DNA of 64,000 bases from Promethearchaeati archaeon (GTDB taxonomy: Archaea; Asgardarchaeota; Heimdallarchaeia; Heimdallarchaeales; Heimdallarchaeaceae): contig JABLTJ010000005.1 in NCBI GenBank assembly GCA_013166775.1, forward strand, positions 32,001-96,000. The letters are read 5' to 3'. The notes below the pieces were generated by a model that searched no databases, had not been told where the DNA came from, and saw only the letters and a program-made list of their open reading frames with translations. Position 1 is the stretch's first letter; each line of letters starts with the position of its first letter. The position numbers and the translations under genes were made by a program. Below are positions 57,188 through 57,369 of this stretch, piece by piece.

Positions 57188-57369
57188 ACCTAGCAAGGTT
57201 TTCAGGTTCGGAATGAGTCTGAGTGTTACCCCTTCACTATGGCCGCGACGCATCGCAGCGAACGGCTGTTCCCAAGCCCTCGCGGAACTTAGTACAAAGC
57301 CACACGTTGAAGGACTTAACTTTCCCGACCATCTGGAACGCATCCAGATGTTGTCTGACCTTACTAGGC
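57188..57369 (-). repeat. Complementary arms GCCTAGTAAGG (57369-57359) / CCTTGCTAGGT (57198-57188) flanking the permuted 5S, with BHB motifs
   Basis: 11-bp stem (2 G-U pairs), then TCAG/CTGA 4-bp helix with ACA and AAA bulges. Confidence 0.8.
57201..57321 (-). rRNA. rrf: 5S rRNA, circularly permuted (3' half 57321-57253, TGCG linker, 5' half 57248-57201)
   Basis: Minus strand reads AGTTAAGTCCTTCAAC...GTAC...GCGA...GGAA...GCTGCGA-TGCG-TCGCGGCCATAGTGAAGGGGTAACACTCAGACTCATTCCGAACCTGAA; all 5S helices can form. Confidence 0.9.

Follow-up and report, generated by a model that had tools for sequence, protein, structure and literature searches.

Organization of the locus

The window analysed here – a stretch of 64,000 nucleotides from a member of the Heimdallarchaeaceae – carries on its minus strand, between 57372 and 57183, a 5S rRNA gene that is circularly permuted, with its new ends in helix III and with helix I capped by a UNCG-type loop. 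The Rfam 5S model (RF00001) returns two partial, sub-threshold matches that cover the two 5S parts in swapped order, and by this measure the locus does not read as a collinear gene: the best score is 21.5 bits against a cut-off of 38, because the gene order is permuted. No second 5S gene was found in this metagenome-assembled genome (88.7% complete), and the swapped order of the pieces together with the lack of another 5S gene identifies the gene as circularly permuted. R1, a covariance model of the permuted core built on an alignment (A1) in which helices I, II and IV/V show compensatory changes, scores the locus at 141 bits. The helix III pair is U-A in 26 and C-G in four of 30 family sequences, and is unpaired in none. 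In the gene the 3′ two-thirds of 5S come first, from GUUAAG at 57320, and the 5′ third follows the UGCG loop, with loop C in that third alongside the true helix III strand. All of the elements named in an initial annotation of this sequence are found in the span, and the features are as follows, in order along the minus strand.

57391 to 57399, minus strand: A/T-rich box, from its position a putative TATA element of a stand-alone pre-5S transcription unit
57359 to 57368, minus strand: 5′ strand of the leader/trailer clamp helix, pairing with 57189-57198
57355 to 57358, minus strand: leader UCAG, which duplicates the helix III 5′ strand and forms the central strand of the outer bulge-helix-bulge (BHB) register; CAG is invariant
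57351 to 57354, minus strand: A-rich linker ACAA, would-be 5′ bulge of the outer register; family pattern A-N-A-(N)-N, 4 to 5 nt
57330 to 57350, minus strand: leader hairpin with an 8-bp stem and a 5-nt loop, UGCGU; compensatory changes, single copy in the genome
57324 to 57329, minus strand: GU spacer and CGGG, the strand that the leader contributes to the inner 4-bp helix; C(G/A)GG pairs with CCUG
57201 to 57321, minus strand: permuted 5S rRNA of 121 nt, the portion retained in RNA; Rfam and R1 matches, RNA contigs
57249 to 57252, minus strand: UGCG loop capping helix I, the site of the ends in normal 5S; UNCG-type across the family, crossed by RNA contigs
57219 to 57222, minus strand: true helix III 5′ strand UCAG within 5S; covaries with the base after CCUG
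57199 to 57206, minus strand: CCUG (helix III 3′ strand, common to both BHB registers) and AAAA with the 3′ cut site; CCUG is invariant, and the RNA junction keeps three A
57189 to 57198, minus strand: 3′ strand of the clamp helix, pairing with 57368-57359 (pair counts below)
57183 to 57188, minus strand: U-rich run right after the clamp, from its position a putative terminator; the T-run is conserved in the genus alignment

The A/T-rich box lies about 30 nt upstream of the clamp and is conserved in the genus alignment; family f7 has a clearer TTTAAA box at an equal distance from its clamp. The clamp is 10 bp long, one G·U included, or 11 bp when U57358-A57199 is added, and the strands of the leader hairpin are 57350-57343 and 57337-57330, with the loop at 57342-57338. 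Two BHB registers can be drawn: an outer one, in which UCAG (57358-57355) pairs with CUGA (57205-57202) between bulges ACA (57354-57352) and AAA (57201-57199), and an inner one, in which CGGG (57327-57324) pairs with CCUG (57206-57203) and each strand is followed by AAA. The initial annotation had observed that the leader UCAG mimics the helix III strand, and the same UCAG does stand at 57358-57355 and 57222-57219; its arithmetic also holds, 57352 to 57200 being 153 nt, 57321 to 57201 being 121 nt, and the difference 32 nt.

A tRNA-Ser (GCU) gene at 57492-57574 on the plus strand lies about 120 nt from the pre-5S start and is oriented divergently. Elsewhere in the window a tRNA-Trp (CCA) gene (31646-31746, plus strand) is interrupted near its anticodon loop by an intron of about 27 nt; the gene was detected by Rfam and missed by ARAGORN.

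Distribution of the permuted gene

Of the 24 other genomes in the genus, 23 carry the locus, and the closed genomes of H. aukensis and H. endolithica have two copies each. The authors of the closed Heimdallarchaeum genomes reported that 5S rRNA genes "could not be predicted" (PMC8813620, Methods), which we attribute to the permutation. Across the class, R1 finds full-length matches in 79 of 83 genomes, representing all seven families. In a sample of the phylum R1 matches 77 of 151 genomes and the canonical Rfam model exceeds its cut-off in 49 of the 151, the two models being complementary by family. Inspection by eye of 20 loci from outside the class (L150-L169) showed most to be truly permuted with BHB flanks; the weak R1 matches in f15, f17 and f20 proved on inspection to be ordinary 5S genes.

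Many Asgard families outside the class have a permuted 5S with plain BHB flanks and full-length R1 matches of 50-82 bits. Canonical 5S genes characterize two large families, f11 and f17. The AT-rich family f14 is permuted, yet scores low with both models.

Joined 5S in RNA contigs

Four RNA runs from four studies (X1, X2, X3 and X5) were examined, all as assembled contigs, in which ends, strand, abundance and rare intermediates are not visible; 13 entries recorded as RNA contain part of the stretch. The contigs of X1, X3 and X5, from three studies, cover only 57200-57324 and have loose ends at both sides: the letters before 57200 are those of plus-strand 57309-57320, and the letters behind 57324 those of plus-strand 57204-57217. 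Read in the RNA sense the junction is ...CCGAACCUG-AAA-GUUAAG... (CCUG-AAA-GUUAAG), which is the 121-nt joined form without the hairpin. It is identical in the exact sequence of the window and in variants with 8 to 14 differences, and it is not encoded in the DNA of 31 family genomes, where the search gave one match with a single mismatch elsewhere, itself matched by a control match. The 121-nt end product predicted from the DNA is supported, its exact junction being carried by contigs from all three of these studies.

The count of three A at the junction agrees with cuts placed two nt after CGGG and two nt after CCUG, and the product is thus joined at the cut sites predicted from the inner register in all three studies; GAAA is common to both ends, so the cut is not placeable within GAAA. 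Two further arrangements, a mixed one (3′ cut of the outer register with 5′ cut of the inner) and one with a 5-bp central helix (U-CGGG/CCUG-A), each predict four A at the junction where three are observed, and were rejected.

Several of the contigs also bear on the topology of the product. X1 record 1 is 151 nt long, that is 121 + 30, as for a closed cycle assembled with 31-letter words; it has zero mismatches to the window and runs through the helix I loop, and the cycle is closed by this single unitig at a depth of about 4. The deepest X3 piece (record 8) also spans the helix I loop. X2 record 3 covers 57250-57414 at a depth of 3.3, and likely represents DNA or read-through because it extends past the presumed transcription start; it is uninformative on the junction. 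No X1, X3 or X5 contig covers 57325-57352, and as contigs drop rare forms this is no argument against a 153-nt intermediate.

Across helix III the accumulated RNA is connected as in a canonical 5S, and its helix I cap is intact; the hairpin and leader CAG are conserved parts of the precursor that are absent from it. The initial annotation had offered, as one possibility, that the insertion is retained, with the mature 5S being the 153-nt form and the hairpin an expansion segment at helix III. Only outer-register geometry speaks for this reading, which we consider almost certainly wrong: in three studies, variants included, the contigs join CCUG-AAA to GUUAAG and skip the hairpin, so that for the abundant RNA an expansion segment – which would be part of the mature RNA – is refuted, and the hairpin is missing from other families with otherwise similar 5S cores.

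The accumulated 5S is rejoined, 121 nt long, and probably a ring-shaped covalent circle. Alternatively the mature RNA could be linear, either with the circle re-opened in the helix I loop or with the joined contigs representing a minor species. Contigs do not show ends, and known archaeal 16S rRNA circles are re-opened (PMC12918454, Background); we nonetheless think a linear mature form unlikely, given that the X1 unitig closes the full 121-nt cycle and that the deepest X3 piece crosses the helix I loop. The loop itself is of UNCG type across the family (UGCG in 12, UUCG in 11, UACG in five), and this type of cap is conserved over many Asgard families, so a permanent cap fits better than a processing site.

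Two registers of the cut signal

The inner register has two 3-nt bulges on opposite strands with a 4-bp helix between them (CGGG-AAA and CCUG-AAA(A)). A two-stranded helix of at least 2 bp does not flank both of these bulges, however: on the 3′-bulge side only GGU/ACC (3 bp) is possible in the window, which competes with the clamp and is not conserved, and the hairpin can stack there only in cis. In the outer register the central 4-bp helix is perfect in the window, with three of its base pairs invariant in the family; outside it is flanked by the 10-bp clamp, and inside only by the cis hairpin after a spacer of 1-2 nt, so that it is a bulge-helix-loop rather than a BHB. When 29 family precursors were folded under constraint, most had the outer register as their minimum-free-energy (MFE) structure or within about 2 kcal/mol of it, and in most the inner register came out 2 to 5 kcal/mol above the outer.

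The 32-nt piece by which the 153-nt and 121-nt forms differ consists of 57322-57352 plus A57200. In the gene it sits in the leader and not between mature parts, and it is bounded by the right intron motifs only after a hypothetical first ligation.

Conservation of leader and trailer elements

Base pairs were counted in 30 distinct sequences of family f1, whose kinship means that the counts overstate evolutionary events. Both-side changes occur in nine of the 10 clamp pairs, with 96% of cells paired, and in four of the eight hairpin pairs, with 97% paired, the hairpin stem being maintained by compensatory changes in five genera. For the inner helix, C(G/A)GG/CCUG, 99% of cells are paired, and G·U is found in 16 sequences and A-U in 14; CCUG is invariant, and the gap between it and the clamp is 4 nt (3 nt after CUGN) in all sequences. 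The leader CAG is likewise invariant in 30 of 30, among variable neighbouring bases. In the outer helix, N-CAG/CUG-N, CAG/CUG is invariant and the N-N pair forms in 21 of 30 and is unpaired in nine, and there is no covariation: the leader base tracked a changed trailer base in one of four cases. Where the trailer A is changed to G, in two genera, the internal helix III strand is compensated in four of four sequences.

Conservation of both the hairpin and the outer BHB in relatives had been named in the initial annotation as a check. The hairpin covaries and CAG/CUG is invariant; it is the fourth outer pair that fails, in nine of the 30. An alignment of orthologous loci had also been suggested there, to look for covariation and for conservation of a shared heptamer, GAUGCGU, and here covariation is found in the clamp and hairpin and the two heptamer loops vary independently. 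In the window GAUGCGU is present in both loops (57344-57338 and 57254-57248), and the two loops have it in common in only seven of 30 sequences; its proposed role as a common recognition loop is not sustained, as the helix I loop is a plain UNCG-type loop that does not covary with the hairpin loop.

A search of the genome for the hairpin as a repeat, allowing up to three mismatches, found a single copy, and it is therefore not a mobile repeat. Reading the leader/trailer as a K-turn or box C/D element was rejected on inspection: there are no tandem G·A pairs at the required places, and a box-C-like run occurs in one species only.

An account without function would hold that the 33-nt insert is a neutral relic, left over from local duplication of a BHB half-site and tolerated by the splicing endonuclease EndA without playing any role. 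A direct repeat of 5-6 letters does flank the insert (GGUCAG ... GGUCGG in the window), and the leader CAG with its A-rich run resembles the CNGG-AAA module. Nevertheless, the compensatory changes in the hairpin stem across five genera, the invariance of CAG amid variable neighbours, and the conservation of the hairpin top even in family f2 make this account very unlikely; together, the conservation of hairpin, CAG and f2 hairpin top points to purifying selection.

Cut signals in other families

In f3 to f7, as in other Asgard families, the leader and trailer pair over 6 to 11 bp, and this helix runs straight into a 4-bp helix with a 3-nt bulge on each side. One strand of the 4-bp helix is the real helix III 3′ strand; the other is a copy of the helix III 5′ strand located in the leader. 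A cut after the second bulge base regenerates the canonical ...CCGG-AA-GUUAAG... in these families. The cut rule was calibrated on families f5 and f7, where the canonical 5S sequence is regenerated; the BHB of the tRNA-Trp intron could not be cleanly drawn by hand. Judged by position, the inner CGGG of the window is homologous to the central BHB strand of f3 to f7 and of other Asgard families.

About 33 extra nt between the clamp and the 4-bp helix are found only in family f1, in five genera, in the order N-CAG, A-rich linker, hairpin and two more bases. Elsewhere in the class the BHB is plain and sits directly at the 5S, and this hairpin insertion is absent. The leader hairpin and second register of f1 are a new variant among permuted 5S genes. 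Family f2, with a single genome (L102, G025:C30:2771-3281), has in its leader the hairpin top, 3 bp and the loop UGCGU, nine letters identical to the f1 hairpin. The trailer of this f2 locus ends in a hairpin of its own and a U-run, with no long clamp.

In the two closed Heimdallarchaeum genomes the cut signal exists in two versions, in copies a and b. Copy b (L099 and L101; G045 and G046) lacks the CAG element and the outer register; its hairpin is shorter, the loop having 4 nt, and its BHB is a plain one in which a regular 5-bp helix lies beside the cut helix.

Model for processing

Taken as a whole, the locus is best explained as specifying the precursor of a permuted 5S that is cut in one step in the inner register, with the hairpin acting as a flanking helix in cis, and we give this account somewhat better than even credence. 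A stand-alone transcript of about 180 nt would start just before the clamp and end just after it. EndA, the tRNA-splicing endonuclease, would be the enzyme that cuts two nt past the CGGG/CCUG 4-bp helix on each strand, and RtcB would join the ends, giving a 121-nt 5S, predicted to be a circle, with normal helix III/loop C sequence and with helix I closed by the UNCG loop. The ~33 nt between the clamp and the 4-bp helix would make a three-way junction, in which the hairpin, on the same strand as CGGG, may provide a stacking helix beside the cut site in cis, and the leader CAG may pair with CUG in the alternative register, lengthening the clamp. Hairpin and CAG would then be a conserved, family-specific elaboration of the cut signal that is subsequently discarded. 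Productive cuts would be those of the inner register, made in one step, and a cut in the outer register would not be required.

Several observations sit less well with processing in one step. The inner-register precursor has no conserved trailer-side helix at the 3′ cut site, where the 3′ bulge lies in an open three-way junction, and it is a non-canonical substrate; in most relatives, moreover, this register is predicted by folding to be less stable than the outer one. The invariant CAG followed by an A-rich linker of 3-4 nt and a helix resembles a BHB half-site, which a one-step route explains only weakly, and the exact 3-nt spacing of CUGN to the clamp fits the outer register.

These features are accommodated by the nested route proposed in the initial annotation, in which a 153-nt circle is formed first and 32 nt are then removed to give the 121-nt circle. 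EndA would cut the outer register after 57353 and after 57200, and RtcB would ligate the 153-nt circle; ligation would close the 3′ bulge and create a proper CCUG/CGGG BHB flanked by the hairpin, which would be the substrate of the second cut. The break-point of the permuted gene would accordingly lie inside a BHB intron. The folding energies of the outer register, the leader CAG, the spacing of CUGN to the clamp in every sequence and the A-rich linker before the hairpin all agree with such a route, the first three being the strongest arguments for it, and its end product is the one observed in RNA. Inspection further suggests that after ligation most lineages gain one or two pairs that extend the hairpin toward CNGG and form a regular BHB, although these hairpin-flanking pairs are missing in about a third of the sequences. 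Behind the 5′ cut site in the outer register there is no two-stranded helix, the first outer pair is unpaired in nine of 30 sequences and followed the trailer A-to-G change in one of four cases (helix III, four of four), copy b of the closed genomes keeps its hairpin without any outer register, and every other family manages with one step. We regard two-step splicing as possible, if on the doubtful side. The fuller version – two successive rounds of cutting and joining by way of a 153-nt ring, removal of a 32-nt hairpin intron, a final 121-nt covalent ring that is ribosomal, and a break-point inside the intron – is rather unlikely to hold in all of its parts.

Both routes give the same product, and we favour one step over two for four reasons. 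The outer N-N pair is not under pairing selection; a copy lacking CAG is functional in the same cells; one-step cutting is what all other families use; and the last cuts must be in the inner register whichever route is taken. The near-complete pairing of the inner helix (99%), including the switch from G·U to A-U, and the retention of the hairpin without CAG in copy b are also in favour of one-step processing.

Splicing endonuclease and ligase genes

The genome encodes two EndA paralogs of 185 aa each, 28% identical to one another and both with N- and C-terminal domains, and a single RtcB ligase.

G000:C97:86567-86794, minus strand: EndA paralog
G000:C1:26311-26571, plus strand: second EndA paralog, more diverged, with a faint Sen15-like match
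G000:C27:35848-37176, plus strand: RtcB ligase

The two paralogs fit a heteromeric endonuclease. Heteromeric archaeal endonucleases, such as the crenarchaeal enzymes, accept relaxed bulge-helix-loop motifs.

Relationship to known permuted and circular RNAs

Nested or multiple BHB introns are known in archaeal tRNA and rRNA genes, for example in tRNAs of the Thermoproteales, and in Nanoarchaeum split tRNA genes are joined in trans. With its hairpin, 4-bp helix and 3-nt bulges the 32-nt piece looks like an archaeal BHB intron, and the leader and trailer held by the clamp resemble the two halves of a split intron. No permuted gene is known to us whose break-point falls within a BHB intron. Permuted tRNAs of Archaea were reportedly described by Chan, Cozen and Lowe in 2011. 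Circularly permuted tRNA genes are also found in Cyanidioschyzon merolae (Soma et al. 2007, as cited in PMC4267664). Permuted tRNAs share with the 5S locus the 3′ part placed before the 5′ part, a BHB formed by leader and trailer, and a circular intermediate made by cutting and ligation. They differ in that the tRNA circle is re-opened by RNase P and tRNase Z, whereas the 5S circle appears to persist, its old ends closed off by a stable tetraloop.

Among described cases the nearest, ahead of permuted tRNA genes and of BHB-mediated 16S/23S circularisation, is the permuted SRP RNA of Thermoproteus, encoded in T. tenax by a permuted gene whose RNA is circularised (Plagens et al. 2015, eLife, PMC4731332). 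As summarized in the abstract of that paper, it too is an essential structured RNA encoded in permuted order, but it is SRP RNA and not 5S, and concerns one crenarchaeal genus, whereas the permuted 5S spans a class and many other Asgard families; a leader hairpin or a second register is not described in the abstract.

Archaeal 16S and 23S rRNAs have processing stems in which a leader/trailer helix carries a BHB that is cut by EndA, with circularisation by RtcB, and some 23S rRNAs are circular or permuted in the ribosome (PMC12918454; PMC7758197; bioRxiv 10.64898/2026.03.23.713588). Their genes, unlike the 5S locus, are collinear with the RNA, and a three-way junction with a cis hairpin is not described in the accessible portions of these reports. 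One of them states that circularisation involves 16S and 23S 'but not 5S rRNAs' (PMC12918454). The permuted 5S of brown-algal mitochondria (Valach et al. 2014, PMC4267664) likewise has helix I as a closed hairpin and its ends elsewhere, but there the final product is linear, with ends between domains alpha and gamma, and neither BHB nor ligation is involved. A literature search, of incomplete coverage, found no paper on a permuted or circular archaeal 5S, and the mitochondrial RNA was the one permuted 5S that it turned up.

A circular 5S would be an rRNA topology undescribed for 5S, and would occur in the archaea nearest to eukaryotes. The cut signal itself has evolved: in one family the clamp and the cut helix have been set apart by the insertion of a second half-site and a conserved hairpin. 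The f1 leader is a natural test both of how strictly the archaeal splicing endonuclease reads the BHB motif and of whether one ligation can create the substrate for a second cut. The permuted arrangement also supplies a concrete search pattern for annotating 5S genes in Asgard genomes.

Multiple and variant copies

Multiple permuted units are present in several genomes. G070 has two permuted 5S units 157 nt apart (L131, G070:C510:3483-4090), and G026 has a partial second permuted unit about 40 nt past the trailer (L116, G026:C18:33092-33608). Four permuted copies lie at contig ends in G027 (contigs C77, C90, C106 and C132), and one of them, when read across two units, gives a canonical 5S at 38.4 bits. 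Such tandem or multiple units could bear on the origin of the permutation, with tandem duplication as one example.

In the loop C region of two loci, L149 (G061:C30:18877-19390) and L164 (G099:C158:18686-19100), there is an insertion of about 30 nt that partly repeats adjacent 5S letters and could be a BHB intron or a local duplication. The second 5S copy of G041 (L091, G041:C43:238767-239281) has changes at otherwise invariant places, CCGAAC to CUGAAC in loop C and CCUG to CCUA, and is possibly a decaying copy.
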